From the NCBI RefSeq assembly GCF_003334785.1, contig NZ_QOWV01000041.1: a stretch of DNA of 5,793 nt. The stretch is one strand, 5' to 3'. Position numbers and translations under genes: made by a program. The notes under the pieces were generated by a model, which was not told where the DNA came from, made no database searches, and worked only from the letters and a program-made list of their open reading frames with translations. The stretch is from Escherichia coli (GTDB lineage: Bacteria > Pseudomonadota > Gammaproteobacteria > Enterobacterales > Enterobacteriaceae). Shown here in pieces: positions 1 to 5,793 of the stretch. Positions within the stretch are counted from its first letter, which is position 1. The number at the start of each line of letters is the position of its first letter.

Positions 1-223
<223 letters not shown>

Positions 224-553
224 CTGCAACGTTTTTCCGCCTGAAAGCTGACTGCCTCCTGCTGAGGTGGGAGGCTATGATTCAGTGCGTTTATAGTCTC
301 CGGGGTATGCATGTACCGGAGCATACCATTTCTGGTGGATAACAAGCCGGCACATTCAGACTGCAGTGAAGATGGAGGCACCTGGTTGTGAAGAACGTTT
401 CTGCCCGTGGCTGCTTCGCATCATCAATGGTATTCATACCCGCTCAGAAATGACCGGGTGCTGAAGCCCTCCGTTATCGCGCAGTATAATGACGTATATG
501 ATCTGTGGACGAGTGAGCGGCGTGCCTGATGTACGCCGCTATTACTGTATTTT

Positions 554-589
554 ACCACAGGGCTGGTTTTCTGCTGCCAGCCCTGTGGT
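554..589 (-). terminator. Perfect 13-bp stem / 10-nt loop hairpin just 3' of the minus-strand ORF; putative terminator
   Basis: ACCACAGGGCTGG (554-566), loop TTTTCTGCTG (567-576), CCAGCCCTGTGGT (577-589) is an exact inverted repeat. It lies 10 nt beyond the stop (599-601) of the minus-strand ORF. The flanking sequence is not a clean U-tract on either strand, so terminator function is an inference. Confidence 0.45.
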
Positions 590-598
590 TCTCAGACA

Positions 599-1201
599 TC
601 AACTGTGAGCGGCATCAACCGATGTACGGTATGCCATAAGCACGTACTGATCCATCAGATTTGTCAGTGGTTCACTCTGACCCTGACGTGCAATGATCCA
701 TTGCTCCAGATCTTTTTCTGATTTGTGTTTCAGGTTTTTCGTCCAGTCGTCAAGGCTGTTTCCGGTCATTAAGTCAAGCCAGCAGAGCCAGACCAGTTTG
801 AGACGTAACTCCGTGCCGCCAAACTGACGGAAGAGGCTGATCAGTTTGTTTGCCAGAGAATGTTGCTTCAGGCGCTCACATTCAGACAGCAGGATCCCTT
901 CCAGCATCGGATGATGAACCAGCAGGTGTTCGCTGGTGCATAAATTCACCACCAGATCATCATCCAGGGACGGGGAGCTCCGTTTGTCCGGACCATAAAT
1001 CAGCCGGTGCAGACTCTGGGGAACGATGGCAATCTCCGGTTTTTCGCCATTGAATGACACCCACCCGGGCGTCAGATTATGGAAATAGTAGATATTCGGA
1101 TGACACACGCCCCATGATACGGCGTGCCGGGTGAAGCCGGTCAGCCATTTCTGGTAGTTTTCATGGAGCAGCTCGTAACGGGTCTGATACTGTTGTTTCA
1201 T
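599..1201 (-). CDS. Hypothetical protein (~200 aa), no family recognised; downstream of and co-oriented with alpA
   Basis: Long ORF on the minus strand (six-frame track 599..1216). Likely start is ATG at 1201 with GAGGA 8 nt upstream; alternative starts are ATG 1207 and GTG 1216. It sits 87 bp after the alpA stop and is followed by the hairpin. No motif I can place. Confidence 0.65.
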   Translation of the reverse strand: MKQQYQTRYELLHENYQKWLTGFTRHAVSWGVCHPNIYYFHNLTPGWVSFNGEKPEIAIVPQSLHRLIYGPDKRSSPSLDDDLVVNLCTSEHLLVHHPMLEGILLSECERLKQHSLANKLISLFRQFGGTELRLKLVWLCWLDLMTGNSLDDWTKNLKHKSEKDLEQWIIARQGQSEPLTNLMDQYVLMAYRTSVDAAHS

Positions 1202-1294
1202 TTTCATATTCCTCACGGGGGATAACAGGCAGCAGAGCGCCGCCGGCAGGCCGGAGATTGCGTCTGCTGTGGGCGAAGGGTTAGTGGTTAAAAA

Positions 1295-1507
1295 TTACGG
1301 ACGGGACTGTGCAATACGCGCCTGCAGCCAGGCTTCCACTTCACTTTTCAGCCAGCGGGAGCTGCGCCCCATTTTGATGGGCGCAGGAAAGCCCCCATCT
1401 TTGATGAGTTTGTCAAACCACTTATCGGTTAGGCCGGTCAGTTGAGTGATAAACGCCATGTCGACCATCTGGTCATCCATCAGCGAAACTGGGGTATCCC
1501 GCTTCAT
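1295..1507 (-). CDS. alpA: AlpA-family phage/island transcriptional regulator (MerR-like HTH, excisionase-type)
   Basis: Translation MKRDTPVSLMDDQMVDMAFITQLTGLTDKWFDKLIKDGGFPAPIKMGRSSRWLKSEVEAWLQARIAQSRP carries the AlpA signature (HTH followed by GFP.P.K.G....W...E...W). Size is 70 aa from ATG 1507, with AGGG 5 nt upstream; the track ORF begins at TTG 1510. Start is uncertain; internal Mets at 1480 and 1468 are possible. Confidence 0.85.
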   Translation of the reverse strand: MKRDTPVSLMDDQMVDMAFITQLTGLTDKWFDKLIKDGGFPAPIKMGRSSRWLKSEVEAWLQARIAQSRP

Positions 1508-1922
1508 CAATGCCCTGAAAGCCCGAATCGACGCTTACCAGAAACGTAAGCATCGGGAAGGTAAACGCGTGCATCCCACAACCCTGCATTACGTCTGGGC
1601 CCGGGAGTTTGGGGAGTGCAAAGGTAAAAAACACTATCACCTGATGCTGCTGGTTAACCGGGATACCTGGTGTCGTGCCGGTGATTACCGTGCTCCGGGA
1701 TCACTGGCCGGGATGATTAAACAGGCGTGGTGCAGTGCCCTGGGAGTGGATGTCGGGTGCCATGCCACGCTGGTGCATTTTCCGGCCTGGCCGGCGGTGT
1801 GGCTGGAACGCGATGATGACACTGGCTTTCAGCAGGTGCTGGAACGTGCTGACTATCTGGCGAAGGAACATACCAAAGCTCACTGCACCGGTGAGCGCAA
1901 TTTTGGCTGTAGCCGGAGTTGA
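1446..1922 (+). pseudogene. YagK/YfjJ-family (inovirus Gp2-like, HUH-motif) replication-initiator-like protein, 5'-truncated remnant
   Basis: The ORF contains ..VSRFINALKARIDAYQKRKHREGKRVHPTTLHYVWAREFGE..KKHYHLMLLVN..LVHFP..ADYLAKEHTK..FGCSRS, matching my recollection of this family including the HYH (HUH) motif and the C-terminal FGCS end. The N-terminal ~90 residues of the family are missing. An in-frame TGA at 1443-1445 precedes the ORF, and the expected upstream space is occupied by alpA on the opposite strand. Confidence 0.6.
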
Positions 1923-2175
1923 GCACGACTGGCGCGCCAATACCCGGCAAACCAAAAGTATGGGTTGTTGTCTGGCGGCAACGATGTATCCACTCGCCCA
2001 CTGACTGTTTTTTACGTCAGTGTTCCATTGTGTGACAACCACAGTGCTGTAACAGCAACCAGCCTGCTTTACCCAAACTCCAGTCCAGATTTTAACTGAA
2101 CCGCCATTCACACCCTGACCACGCTGCCCGTACCGGGACGGCTGTTGCCTGCGTGTCGTCTGACGGCTGAGGAAT

Positions 2176-2583
2176 ATGACTATGTACGCAAAATCCTTTA
2201 TCGCTCTTGATGGCAACGGACGTCTGACGGGCGCCCGTACTGCACAGGCCGCACCTTATGCTAACTACACCTGCCACTTGTGTGGCAGTGCACTCAGATA
2301 CCATCCGCAATACGACACTGAACTTCCCTGGTTTGAACACACTGACGACAGGCTGACAGAGCACGGTCAACAGTGCCCTTATGTCAGGCCGGAGCGCAGA
2401 GAAATACAGTTGATTAAACGTCTGCAGCAATTCGTACCGGATGCCTTACCCGTGGTGCGTAAAGCCAGCTGGCACTGCAGACAATGTCACCACGATTATT
2501 ATGGGGAGCGGTACTGCACACACTGCCAGACCGGAGGATTCAGTATTCCCCGGACAACTCAGGAGGAAATATGCGAATTCTGA
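2176..2583 (+). CDS. Cysteine-rich zinc-finger / zinc-ribbon protein A (135 aa): CoiA-N-terminal-like CxxC..PWFEH module plus C-terminal CxxC-x9-CxxC ribbon
   Basis: ORF with ATG at 2176 (or 2182, 8 nt after GAGGA at 2169-2173). Contains YTCHLCGS..PWFEH and WHCRQCHHDYYGERYCTHCQTGG. It is a clear paralogue of the next gene, and conservation of the Cys/His pattern between the two argues that it is a real gene. Confidence 0.75.
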   Translation: MTMYAKSFIALDGNGRLTGARTAQAAPYANYTCHLCGSALRYHPQYDTELPWFEHTDDRLTEHGQQCPYVRPERREIQLIKRLQQFVPDALPVVRKASWHCRQCHHDYYGERYCTHCQTGGFSIPRTTQEEICEF

Positions 2584-2978
2584 ACTGTTATATGGCGAAT
2601 GACAGCAAAGGCCATTTTGTTACGGCGAAAGAAGCAGCGAAGCACAACCGCCAGGACGTTTTGTGCTGTGTGTCCTGTGGATGCCCGTTAACACTTCAGC
2701 GGGGCAATGACGGACAACCACCGTGGTTTGAACATGACCAGATGACTGTCGCTGAGAAAATCCTGCTGCGATGCACCTGGCTTGACCCGGCAGAGAAAGA
2801 GGCCCGTCGTTTGCATCTGCAGGGTATGACGGTTCCGGATTATACGGTGAAGGTGAGAAAGTGGTTTTGTGTGATGTGTGACGAAAATTATGAGGGGGAA
2901 AAGTGCTGCCCGAGTTGTGCTACCGGGGTATACAGCAGGGAGGGGGGGCAGGAGGGCAACTGGAAGGATAGGAACTGA
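2571..2978 (+). CDS. Cysteine-rich zinc-finger / zinc-ribbon protein B (135 aa), paralogue of protein A
   Basis: ATG 2571 is preceded by a consensus AGGAGG at 2561-2566 (4-nt spacer). The track ORF 2484..2978 starts further upstream, but the RBS supports 2571. Contains LCCVSCGCPL..PWFEH and FCVMCDENYEGEKCCPSCATG. It overlaps the stop of gene A (2581-2583) by 13 nt, suggesting translational coupling. Confidence 0.8.
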   Translation: MRILNCYMANDSKGHFVTAKEAAKHNRQDVLCCVSCGCPLTLQRGNDGQPPWFEHDQMTVAEKILLRCTWLDPAEKEARRLHLQGMTVPDYTVKVRKWFCVMCDENYEGEKCCPSCATGVYSREGGQEGNWKDRN

Positions 2979-3181
2979 GCGGTTCAGTCGCGGAAATCAG
3001 TTGCAGAGCTGTAATGATATCTCCGGGAGTGCTGCGTTGGTAGGGGCATCCCGGGATAGAGAAATTTTAGCACTTTGCCCTGAATGATTGTAGACGTCCC
3101 GAGTACTCGTACCGGTCTGAGTTATTACAGTTAGATATTCACTTTTTCTCCCGCATACTTCACATCTGTCAACGACGGATG

Positions 3182-3208
3182 AAAAGTGGTTCTTCCGCAA
3201 CCTGGGTG
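3182..3208 (+). repeat. Left terminal inverted repeat of the ISL3-family element
   Basis: AAAAGTGGTTCTTCCGCAACCTGGGTG at 3182-3208 matches the reverse complement of 4889-4915 (AAAAGTGGCTCTTCCGCAACCTGGGTG) at 26 of 27 positions. Confidence 0.75.
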
Positions 3209-3261
3209 GAAGAAAATGGATGAAACTTTCTGGCGAACAAGGATCTAAGCTGTTTTAAGTT

Positions 3262-4881
3262 ATGGGCAACGCAATGCACTCTCTTAAGACACTTCTACAG
3301 TTACCTTGCGGATGGCGATGCAGTCGACAAATTATTAGCTCTGACGGTATAACCCTCCATCTCCACGGAAAACGCAAAACAGCACAATGTCCTGAATGCT
3401 TTAAGCGTAGCGACTCTGTTCATAGTTGTCGTCGGCGCCGGATACAGCATCTACCCTGCTCAGGGCAGACGCTATGGCTTGTATTTTCCGTCCGCCACTG
3501 GTACTGCCGTAACCCGGCTTGTTCACGTAAAATTTTTGCCGAGTCGCTTGCTCCCTTCGCCAGTTCACACCAGCAGTCTTCACAGGCGTTACAAAATTAA
3601 CAACGTCAACTGGGATTAATAGCTGGAGGTGAGGCTGGAAAACGGGCTGCAACGGCAGTGGGTCTCCGTTGCAGTGCTGATACTCTTCTTCGCAGGCTTA
3701 TCAATACCCCGGAGACGAAACAGTCAGGCGCGCCTCATGTCGGTATTGATGAGTGGGCGTGGCATCGGGGCCACTGCTGCGGTATGTTAATAGTCAATCC
3801 TGATACTCACCGTCCCCTCGTCCTGCTTCCCGGCCGTGATCAGCGTACGCTGGCGACCTGGTTCAGAAAATATCCGGAAATACAGGTTGTCTCGCGTGAT
3901 CGCAGTGGAGTCTATGCGACAGCAGCACGTGAAGGTGCACCTCAGGCCAGACAGGTGGCCGATCGATGGCACCTGCTAAAAAATATTGGTGATGAGCCTG
4001 AACGAATGATGTACAGATATATGCCTCTGATACGTCTTGTTGTCAGAGAGTTATCACTGAAGAAATCACCTGAGCCAGAAATATCTGTGCCTGTAGCATC
4101 GCTCCGTCGTCTGGAACGCCTTAAACAGCACATCCGCAAAAAACGGCATCAGCGTTGGACAGAGGTTATGGCCCTGCATAACAAGGGATGTAGTTTCAGG
4201 GAAATATCCCGTATTACAGGCCTGTCGCGAGTGACAGTCAGTCGCTGGGTGGGTTCAGGAACATTCCCTGAAATGTCAACTAGGCCTCCAAAGCGAGGGC
4301 TTCTGGACCCATGGAGGGAGTGGTTAAAAGAGCAACGAGAATGTGGTAATTATAACTCCGGCCGGATATGGCGGGAAATGGTGGCCAGGGGGGTTACAGG
4401 CAGTGAAACCATCGTCAGGGATGCTGTTGCCAAATGGCATAAAGGCTGGATCCCACCGGTTACTACTGCCGCAAGACTTCCTTCAGTGTCCCGGGTAAGC
4501 CGCTGGTTGATGCCCTGGAGAATAATCAGGGGTGAAGAAAATTATGCTTTCCGATTTATTAGTCTGATGTGTGAAAAAGAACCGGAGTTGAAAATAGCGC
4601 AGCAACTGGTACTCGAGTTCTACCGTATTCTGAAAACCTAAAATAAATCACAGCTAAGCAGCTGGTTCACTCGGGTCCACGAAAGCGGCTCAGCAGAACT
4701 TCGGTGCGTAGCTGCGGGGATGGAAGCTGATGCTGCGGCTATATGTGAGGCAATCAGCAGTCGCTGGAGTACTGGTGTTGTCGAAGGTCATGTAAATCGC
4801 CTGAAGGTGCTGATACGCCAGATGTATGGTCGAGCCGGACTTGAACTACTTAGGCGGAGGGTAATGAGTCCACTGGCATGA
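3262..4881 (+). pseudogene. ISL3-family transposase, ~539 codons in a single frame, interrupted by two in-frame TAA codons (3598-3600 and 4639-4641)
   Basis: The track ORFs 3262..3600 and 3658..4641, plus the unlisted segment 4642..4881, are all in frame 1. Family-like sequence continues directly across both TAA codons (..QALQN*QRQLGLIAGGEAGKR.. and ..EFYRILKT*NKSQLSSWF..STGVVEGHVNRLK..). There is no frameshift. Confidence 0.8.
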
Positions 4882-4888
4882 AAATCTT

Positions 4889-4915
4889 CACCCAGGTTGC
4901 GGAAGAGCCACTTTT
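4889..4915 (-). repeat. Right terminal inverted repeat of the ISL3-family element
   Basis: CACCCAGGTTGCGGAAGAGCCACTTTT at 4889-4915; its reverse complement matches the left repeat. It begins 8 nt after the transposase stop (4879-4881). Confidence 0.75.
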
Positions 4916-4924
4916 GCACTGTTC

Positions 4925-5253
4925 GTGACAGTATGGCCTTTATGTACTCACTTTGTTACCGGTAGCTGGATCATCACTACCGTGCCGCAAATGGTGGTGA
5001 ACAGCATCAATTGTGGAATGAATGTTGCCGAAGCGACCAATGCGCCTCGTTTCCACCATCAGTGGTTGCCGGACGAGCTGCGTGTTGAAAAGGGTTTAGT
5101 CCGGATACGCTCAAGCTGCTGGAAGCAAAAGGTCAGAAAGTGGCGCTGAATGAGGCGATGGGCAGCACGCAAAGCATTATGGTTGGGTCGGATGGTGAGT
5201 TGTACGGCGCATCCGACTCGCGCTTGGTGGATGATTTAACGGCGGGGTATTAA
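4925..5253 (+). pseudogene. ggt: gamma-glutamyltranspeptidase 3' remnant, 5'-truncated at the IS and carrying a -1 frameshift
   Basis: Translation ..VTGSWIITTVPQMVVNSINCGMNVAEATNAPRFHHQWLPDELRVEKG, then after a frame change PDTLKLLEAKGQKVALNEAMGSTQSIMVGSDGELYGASDSRLVDDLTAGY* (stop 5251-5253), matches the GGT C-terminus as I recall it from E. coli. One T is missing from the T-run at 5095-5097. Relative to the remembered sequence there is also a probable 12-nt in-frame deletion (GSPGGSRII read as GSWII). The 5' boundary is approximate. Confidence 0.8.
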
Positions 5254-5258
5254 TTGAC

Positions 5259-5285
5259 ATCCCCCGGCGCAATGTGCCGGGGGAT
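5259..5285. terminator. GC-rich hairpin between convergent ggt and phosphotriesterase-family genes; probable bidirectional intrinsic terminator
   Basis: ATCCCCCGGC (5259-5268), loop GCAATGT, GCCGGGGGAT (5276-5285): a perfect 10-bp stem. It is followed on the plus strand by AATGGTTTTATG and lies between stop codons at 5251-5253 (+) and 5293-5295 (-). Confidence 0.6.
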
Positions 5286-5292
5286 AATGGTT

Positions 5293-5715
5293 TTATGCGG
5301 TCAATAATCGTCCGGGATTATCGATACAGAGTTTTTTGAGGATCGTTTTATCGACGCCGCGCTCCGCCAGATAGGCCAGAAAAACATCTGGAACAAATCC
5401 CCAGCCATTACCGCCATTTTTAGCCCACATTTGTTTAAGGAAGACATCGTGGCTGAGAACAAGCTGATCGGCGTATCCCAACTCAATGAGATGAGCGACG
5501 GCATCGGCAGTCTCCTGCACCCCTGGCGCTATTCCCTCTTTCGGGAAGGTAATGTCTAGGCCAATCATGTCGAATTCCAGCCAGACACCTTTATCAAGCA
5601 TTTTCCGCTGATACGCCACGTCTTTTCCTGACGGATCCGAGTGTGCGAGAGAGACTTTATTTGGCGAGACGCCCATTTCACCTAACACAATGTCGAGTAC
5701 TTCGTAAGCGACTCG
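5293..5715 (-). pseudogene. Phosphotriesterase-family (PTE/Php-like amidohydrolase) gene, C-terminal ~140 codons only; frame closed upstream by an in-frame stop
   Basis: Minus-strand translation ..RVAYEVLDIVLGEMGVSPNKVSLAHSD..LVLSHDVFLKQMWAKNGGNGWGFVPDVFLAYLAERGVDKTILKKLCIDNPGRLLTA* aligns to the C-terminal half of E. coli Php-type proteins (..SMDIT..KANGGYGY..ENP..). An in-frame TGA at 5716-5718 ends the frame upstream, and no PTE-like continuation is seen in any frame of 5719-5793. The track ORF starts at GTG 5688. Confidence 0.7.
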
Positions 5716-5793
5716 TCAGAACCGTATTGATATTTACTGAGAGCTCAGATCAACTTTCCAGGGCAACAGATCGCGTACCCGGTTTGCCGGCCA

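Follow-up and report, generated by a model that had tools for sequence, protein, structure and literature searches.

The truncated gene and its neighbour

The window analysed here is a 5,793-nucleotide stretch of Escherichia coli DNA (RefSeq assembly GCF_003334785.1, contig NZ_QOWV01000041.1). It carries a 5'-truncated member of the inovirus Gp2 (YagK/YfjJ) protein family, lying head-to-head with a gene for an AlpA-like helix-turn-helix protein. A deletion junction separates the two, and the features around it are as follows (here and below, a slash within a sequence marks the cut or join).

1497-1922, plus strand: 5'-truncated pseudogene of the inovirus Gp2 / YagK-YfjJ family (PF11726), covering residues 49-189 (of 189) and the stop codon
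1446-1496, plus strand: non-homologous upstream part of the open frame, with GTG 1446 and ATG 1458; antisense of the alpA-like gene
1495-1498, no strand: deletion junction GGGGTA/TCCCGC, with a 2-bp exact microhomology, TA
1295-1507, minus strand: AlpA-like helix-turn-helix gene damaged by the deletion; codons 3-68 kept (1295-1496), promoter region lost

In the window's list of open reading frames, the plus-strand frame 1446-1922 encodes 158 amino acids from a GTG start, contains ATG 1458 in frame (12 nucleotides downstream) and closes with a stop codon at 1920-1922. The original prediction had described this whole span as a Rep-like remnant that had lost its N-terminal region but kept an HYH motif (KKHYHLMLLVN) and the family C-terminus through FGCSRS. 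Both elements can be read in the translation, with the His-Tyr-His codons at 1632-1640 and the product ending in GERNFGCSRS. The proposed span held only in part: the frame is open throughout, but homology to the family is confined to 1497-1922, and 1446-1496 is antisense alpA-like sequence.

Against Pfam, the translation of the frame matched YagK_YfjJ_C (PF11726) far above chance level (expect value (E) 4.8e-38, score 131.2), with residues 16-156 aligned to positions 27-170 of the 170-position model. A second, weaker Pfam match was to REP_ORF2-G2P (PF23343, E 2.6e-5), and PHROG 25019 was matched at E 8.1e-38. When the remnant and its neighbours were scanned with NCBIfam and PADLOC, the Gp2 protein was assigned to no family and nothing related to defence came up.

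As an intact reference we used the 189-residue protein WP_000221530.1 of strain ATCC 11775 (locus L002, 3865-4434). A full-length family domain covers model positions 1-170, corresponding to about 189 residues in Enterobacterales; the intact allele spans all of it, and the remnant does not. Instead, the remnant aligns to the intact protein from S49 on, so the N-terminal region predicted to be missing corresponds to residues 1-48. Over the shared 426 nucleotides (L002 4009-4434) the two alleles have 0 mismatches. The Prokaryotic Genome Annotation Pipeline (PGAP) labels the equivalent of 1494-1922 in strain JKHS016 "inovirus Gp2 family protein; incomplete; missing N-terminus". The remnant is therefore ordinary, being already annotated as a pseudogene by RefSeq in identical genomes.

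The deletion removes both gene starts

By BLAST, window 186-1496 lines up with L002 1025-2335 (the alpA-like gene and its flank) and window 1489-5703 with L002 4001-8215. The 1,673 bp in between (L002 2336-4008) are absent, and the two sides are joined between window positions 1496 and 1497. The window reads ACTGGGGTA/TCCCGCTTC across the junction, compared with ACTGGGGTA/GCCATGAG on the left side of the reference and GCTGTGATA/TCCCGCTTC on its right side. The octamers that flank the deletion, CTGGGGTA and CTGTGATA, agree at 6 of 8 positions.

On the right of the junction, the Gp2 gene has lost residues 1-48, its ATG, its GGAG Shine-Dalgarno site and the whole upstream region. On the left, the divergent AlpA-like gene has lost its ATG, part of codon 2 and its GGAGGA Shine-Dalgarno site. 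The whole 1.5-kb divergent intergenic region is also gone from the window, and presumably both promoters went with it. The remnant and the AlpA-like gene now overlap head-to-head by about 50-60 bp.

The AlpA-like protein, for which Phage_AlpA Pfam matches are recorded, has acquired a new N-terminus, MKRD, translated from antisense Gp2 sequence (1497-1507). Pairing of its start region with the anti-Shine-Dalgarno sequence falls from -9.5 kcal/mol at the native start to -3.9 kcal/mol at the new one, and the gene is probably dead as well. PGAP still calls it intact, as a 70-residue protein (WP_032179970.1). AlpA variants of 92 and 117 residues, considered as distinct alleles, turned out to be nothing more than the intact gene called from start codons further upstream.

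The deleted segment also held a gene for a 66-residue protein (L002 3465-3665, minus strand), which lies between the alpA-like and Gp2 genes in intact loci. This protein begins with a CxxC...CxxC zinc ribbon and ends in a hydrophobic tail; its PHROG matches are weak, with function unassigned there.

Conserved residues and predicted fold

We gathered 63 full-length homologues (32-68% identity) by two protein searches and aligned them. Seven residues are invariant: E85, H94, H96, W126, A129, Y168 and K171. A further set is near-invariant: R26, R31, D33, P37, R50, F51, W82, Y95, N102, G110, L140, K175, R182, G185 and S187. All 7 invariant residues fall inside the retained part, and R26, R31, D33 and P37 fall inside the lost part. 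Among the retained residues are the motifs typical of His-hydrophobic-His (HUH) enzymes.

1605-1607, plus strand: E85, acidic and invariant, nine residues ahead of the HUH motif, likely third metal ligand
1632-1640, plus strand: HUH motif (motif II), H94-Y95-H96; H94 and H96 invariant, Y95 at least 90% conserved in the 63 homologues
1854-1865, plus strand: motif III, Y168-L-A-K171 (YxxK), with the putative catalytic tyrosine; Y168 and K171 invariant

The alignment also bears on whether the catalytic tyrosine or the metal-binding residues had been lost with the N-terminal part, as the original prediction had allowed. They had not: E85, H94, H96, Y168 and K171 are all retained.

An AlphaFold (AF2) model of the intact protein was obtained with high confidence (predicted local distance difference test (pLDDT) score 95.3, predicted template modelling score 0.90). 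It shows an HUH nuclease fold, with the HUH motif on strand 93-102 and the motif III tyrosine on a helix that follows this strand, Y168 standing at the end of helix 156-170. By model and motifs, the YagK/YfjJ "inovirus Gp2" family is HUH-Rep-like. The description of the remnant as Rep-like thus agrees both with the model and with the finding of PF23343 in 55 of the 63 family members. Y168 would be the catalytic tyrosine, and the family may nick DNA. Sequence searches of the PDB, with the single protein and with a profile, gave 0 matches, and folds had to be compared instead. In the literature searched there was no paper on metal-dependent nicking of single-stranded DNA with a 5'-phosphotyrosine, nor a functional study, for the Gp2 family.

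The model also places what the deletion took away. Helix 7-23 and the long strand 26-35 (LTALRVDLRF) fall in the deleted 48 residues, so that motif I and the first beta-strand are present only in the intact allele. In HUH folds the first strand is central in the sheet, beside the HUH strand; its loss should therefore prevent folding.

Expression signals

The remnant has no start codon and no recognisable ribosome-binding site or promoter of its own. No sigma-70-like promoter was found on either strand of 1150-2250. Anti-Shine-Dalgarno pairing reaches -2.2 kcal/mol at ATG 1458 and -4.2 kcal/mol at GTG 1446, compared with -6.6 kcal/mol at the native Gp2 start and a window mean of -2.9 kcal/mol. 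ATG 1458, from which the original prediction supposed that a truncated protein could still be made, is indeed in frame, but it sits in antisense alpA-like sequence and so is no internal start codon of the Gp2 family; it has no promoter-like site and pairs less strongly than the window mean.

Occurrence of the allele

We searched 5,426 complete E. coli genomes in RefSeq with window 1200-2200 (1 kb). This stretch matches 3,830 of them, mostly from window 1489 only and under a full-length "inovirus Gp2 family protein" gene, with a median of 4 matching places per matched genome. Two genomes, JKHS016 and AST198, are 100% identical over the whole 1 kb and are the only ones of the 5,426 to carry the window junction. 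The allele is real and inherited within a lineage. Outside the complete genomes, the junction-specific 70-residue AlpA variant (MKRD-TPVSL...) is found on 131 contigs, and the exact 154-residue product of ATG 1458 on at least 21 contigs, from isolate assemblies and gut metagenomes.

Of the public database entries named "inovirus Gp2 family protein, partial", many are artefacts that arise where this multi-copy gene breaks assemblies, and they cannot be counted as truncation alleles. Four such proteins that we considered as additional alleles were discarded on these grounds, three (P0283, P0285 and P0293) because they begin at contig ends and one (P0056) because it follows a run of N.

A probable young pseudogene

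What the gene is, the deletion with its junction, the residues kept and lost, and the absence of a recognisable promoter or ribosome-binding site are direct observations. From them we read window 1497-1922 as, very probably, a young and non-functional pseudogene of a Rep-like gene. The remnant is the 3' three-quarters of a small, 189-residue gene with an HUH fold, core to genomic islands of the AlpA/integrase type. A single deletion of 1,673 bp joined codon 2 of the divergent alpA-like gene to codon 48 of this Rep-like gene and, in the same event, stripped both of their start codons and Shine-Dalgarno sites. Left without the N-terminal helix, the first beta-strand and its expression signals, the remnant would not be expected to yield an active protein. 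The decay of the surrounding island, with its gene fragments and with Gp2 copies broken by other events in other strains, supports this reading. Its motifs are probably intact because the deletion is recent (0 of 426 positions changed) and not because of selection; with so little time for decay, they say nothing about selection.

Several points weigh against this reading. The frame remains unbroken for 154-158 codons with an ATG inside it, and some NCBI records annotate the 154-residue product as a protein (P0282). The consensus promoter scan is crude and leaves room for weak, non-sigma-70 or read-through transcription. The allele also persists unchanged on more than 100 contigs, which fits recency but could also fit neutral or mildly useful retention. 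The open frame with its ATG and its annotation in some records, together with the 7 invariant residues and the several matching places per genome, which make intact paralogues possible as partners, could be taken to mean that the remnant is made from ATG 1458 or GTG 1446 as a chimeric truncated HUH protein, partly active or dominant negative on intact paralogues. We consider this very unlikely. The region has no promoter-like site, the pairing at ATG 1458 is below average strength, and the absence of substitutions since the deletion gives no sign of selection either way. Moreover, the lost 48 residues carry helix 7-23, strand 26-35 and the near-invariant R26, R31, D33 and P37, which makes a stable, active product from the remnant unlikely; the truncated protein would probably neither fold nor act. 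A quite different explanation, that the truncation is an artefact of assembly or annotation, draws on the many partial Gp2 entries that are just that. An assembly artefact was nevertheless rejected: the exact junction occurs at 100% identity in two independent complete genomes, and the junction-specific proteins lie within contigs of up to 5 Mb from several assemblies and from gut metagenomes. The chance that the truncation is artefactual seems to us negligible. In itself, then, the remnant matters little: the E. coli island is decaying, and this is one more of its genes to have been inactivated recently.

Three deletion alleles with one fixed left end

Five complete genomes have deletions between the alpA-like and Gp2 genes, and these represent three alleles: the window type (JKHS016 and AST198), the FT130 type, and the MLI110 type (MLI110 and MB06021). 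The left end is identical in all three. It follows CTGGGGTA (GGGGTA/) in codon 2 of the alpA-like gene and is placed at window 1489-1497, at L002 2335/2336, and at about 2797 in both L004 and L005. The native site reads CTGGGGTA/GCCATG and lies where the alpA-like gene starts. The right ends differ and lie at three places inside the Gp2 gene, at L002 4008 (CTGTGATA/T), 3981 (CGGATGTA/C) and 4177 (CCGGGATA/C). They agree with the left octamer at 5-6 of 8 positions, ranking in the top 0.5%, 3.6% and 0.5% of 2,089 candidate positions.

Downstream of the cut the breakpoints show no similarity. Hairpins or unusual structure at the breakpoints were no better than in shuffled sequences (z-scores -0.75 to +0.2), and the only repeats there were at chance level. 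The flanking haplotype of FT130 is the more divergent, with 20 differences compared with 3-9 for the others. A single-nucleotide polymorphism, 1430T, is the sole one in the left flank common to the deletion carriers; we rejected it as a marker of common descent because the surrounding 60 nucleotides are matched perfectly in 833 genomes. A metagenome scan for junction variants with CATCAGCGAAACTGGGGTAH gave 37 matches and no new deletion type at the left end: 34 were a native alpA allele (...GGGGTATTCATG), and the remaining 3 seem to be fortuitous and unrelated.

Such a pattern might mean that the deletion was a site-directed cut-and-join at the fixed CTGGGGTA/GCCATG and not random slippage. 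The candidate agent would be a Gp2-family HUH enzyme, either this copy or a paralogue, nicking at the site and rejoining at look-alike pseudo-sites. Deletions with one end fixed at the origin nick site have been described in rolling-circle replicons such as M13 and pC194. The shared left end with three right ends among five genomes, the resemblance of these right ends to the left octamer, the divergent FT130 haplotype with its hint of an independent origin, and the HUH nuclease fold of the family with its invariant HUH and tyrosine residues all point in this direction. However, there are three alleles only, their breakpoints have no hairpin, unusual structure or meaningful repeats and no similarity beyond the cut, and the metagenome scan added no further junction variants at the left end. 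The nicking activity that would be called upon is itself a deduction from fold and motifs. Imperfect short direct repeats would also suit ordinary replication slippage. The alleles may have arisen at a hot spot where such repeats promote slippage, or stepwise, one ancestral deletion having given rise to the others through small slippage events of 27 and 196 bp.

On balance, we regard site-directed joining as improbable. That the shared left breakpoint marks a site cut and rejoined by a Gp2-family HUH enzyme, the remnant being a product of aberrant strand transfer by its own protein family, seems to us quite improbable. If true, it would supply a first candidate for the nick site, and with it a first hint at function, for a protein that is uncharacterised yet core to a widespread class of genomic islands. 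Whatever their source, the three alleles sharing a fixed end offer an inexpensive lead, which could point either to a deletion hot spot or to a site-specific cleavage site beside the Gp2 gene.

The surrounding island and other broken copies

The pseudogene lies in a heavily eroded, decaying E. coli genomic island. At the left edge of the window (1-223), 44-223 holds an N-terminal fragment of an IstB helper ATPase of the insertion sequence (IS) family IS21 (IS100kyp-like). Since the match to JKHS016 sets in only at window 186, carriers of one and the same deletion differ in their left flank. A conserved hypothetical protein of about 200 residues (WP_000813432.1; about 599-1216, minus strand, annotated as 599-1201) adjoins the alpA-like gene and had no match in NCBIfam, PHROGs or PADLOC.

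To the right of the remnant are two tandem, slightly overlapping paralogous zinc-ribbon genes on the plus strand (2176-2583 and 2571-2978; Pfam DUF7828 / Zn_ribbon_11). Almost every related locus that was examined has this pair after the Gp2 gene, and it too had no match in NCBIfam, PHROGs or PADLOC. The right part of the window, listed as 3262-4881, 4925-5253, 5293-5703 and 5685-5793, contains a pseudogene of an ISL3-family transposase, interrupted by internal stops and frameshifts, then a C-terminal fragment of gamma-glutamyltransferase (ggt), then a gene related to phosphotriesterase (php-like). Homology to this last gene ends at about 5703 and is followed by DNA about 95% identical to an IS66-family (ISCro1-like) transposase; no complete RefSeq E. 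coli genome contains this junction.

The Gp2 gene is broken in other strains by other events. An IS3-family insertion at L002 ~3959 (codon ~32) occurs in either orientation (~3950-3960 in L058, L061 and L062). In L062 and L058 a reverse-transcriptase/maturase gene of the group II intron type lies between the two transposase genes of the IS3-family element, and in L061 the insertion is accompanied by an adjacent deletion. In L057 (3718-4432) the gene is broken by a 147-bp tandem duplication. The 143-residue protein P0286, considered as a product of the same breakpoint as in the window, reflects these IS3-family insertions and the 147-bp duplication instead.

Comparison with known systems

The motif order of the Gp2 family is that of HUH endonucleases and rolling-circle Reps: the acidic residue comes first, His-hydrophobic-His follows on a beta-strand, and a helix further on carries the YxxK tyrosine. 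In this respect the family can be likened to SIRV1 ORF119, the nuclease domains of parvovirus NS1 and adeno-associated virus Rep, RepB of pMV158 and the Helitron Rep, as well as to TnpA-REP and the Reps of CRESS viruses, geminiviruses and nanoviruses. Profile links to Reps run through PF23343 and, marginally, through Rep_1, RepSA, Helitron_like_N and Phage_GPA; sequence identity to solved structures is only 10-16%. The Gp2 protein differs from these systems in being only 189 residues long and in having no helicase or oligomerisation domain. The window copy departs further from HUH Reps in lacking the first strand, the motif I region. Taken together, the alignment, the model and the fold search make an explicit case for YagK/YfjJ "inovirus Gp2" proteins as HUH-type nucleases, with E85, H94/H96 and Y168/K171 invariant.

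The closest familiar relatives are YfjJ (CP4-57) and YagK (CP4-6) of E. coli K-12, which belong to the same family, PF11726, under the RefSeq name "inovirus Gp2 family protein". Both are listed among the still-uncharacterised prophage genes of K-12 (PMC11551758), and intY/alpA genomic islands are reported to have a Gp2-like protein as a likely part of their core (bioRxiv 10.1101/2024.08.29.610337). The window copy differs from YfjJ and YagK in having lost residues 1-48 and all expression signals. Over 196 aligned positions the intact allele shares 36% identity with YfjJ (E 2e-36), and the two have the blocks RVDL, ISRF, HYH, Y(L/M)xK and RNFGCS in common. YfjJ too sits in an alpA-bearing island, CP4-57, although alpA, yfjI and yfjJ are co-directional there, whereas the alpA-like gene here is divergent from the Gp2 gene.
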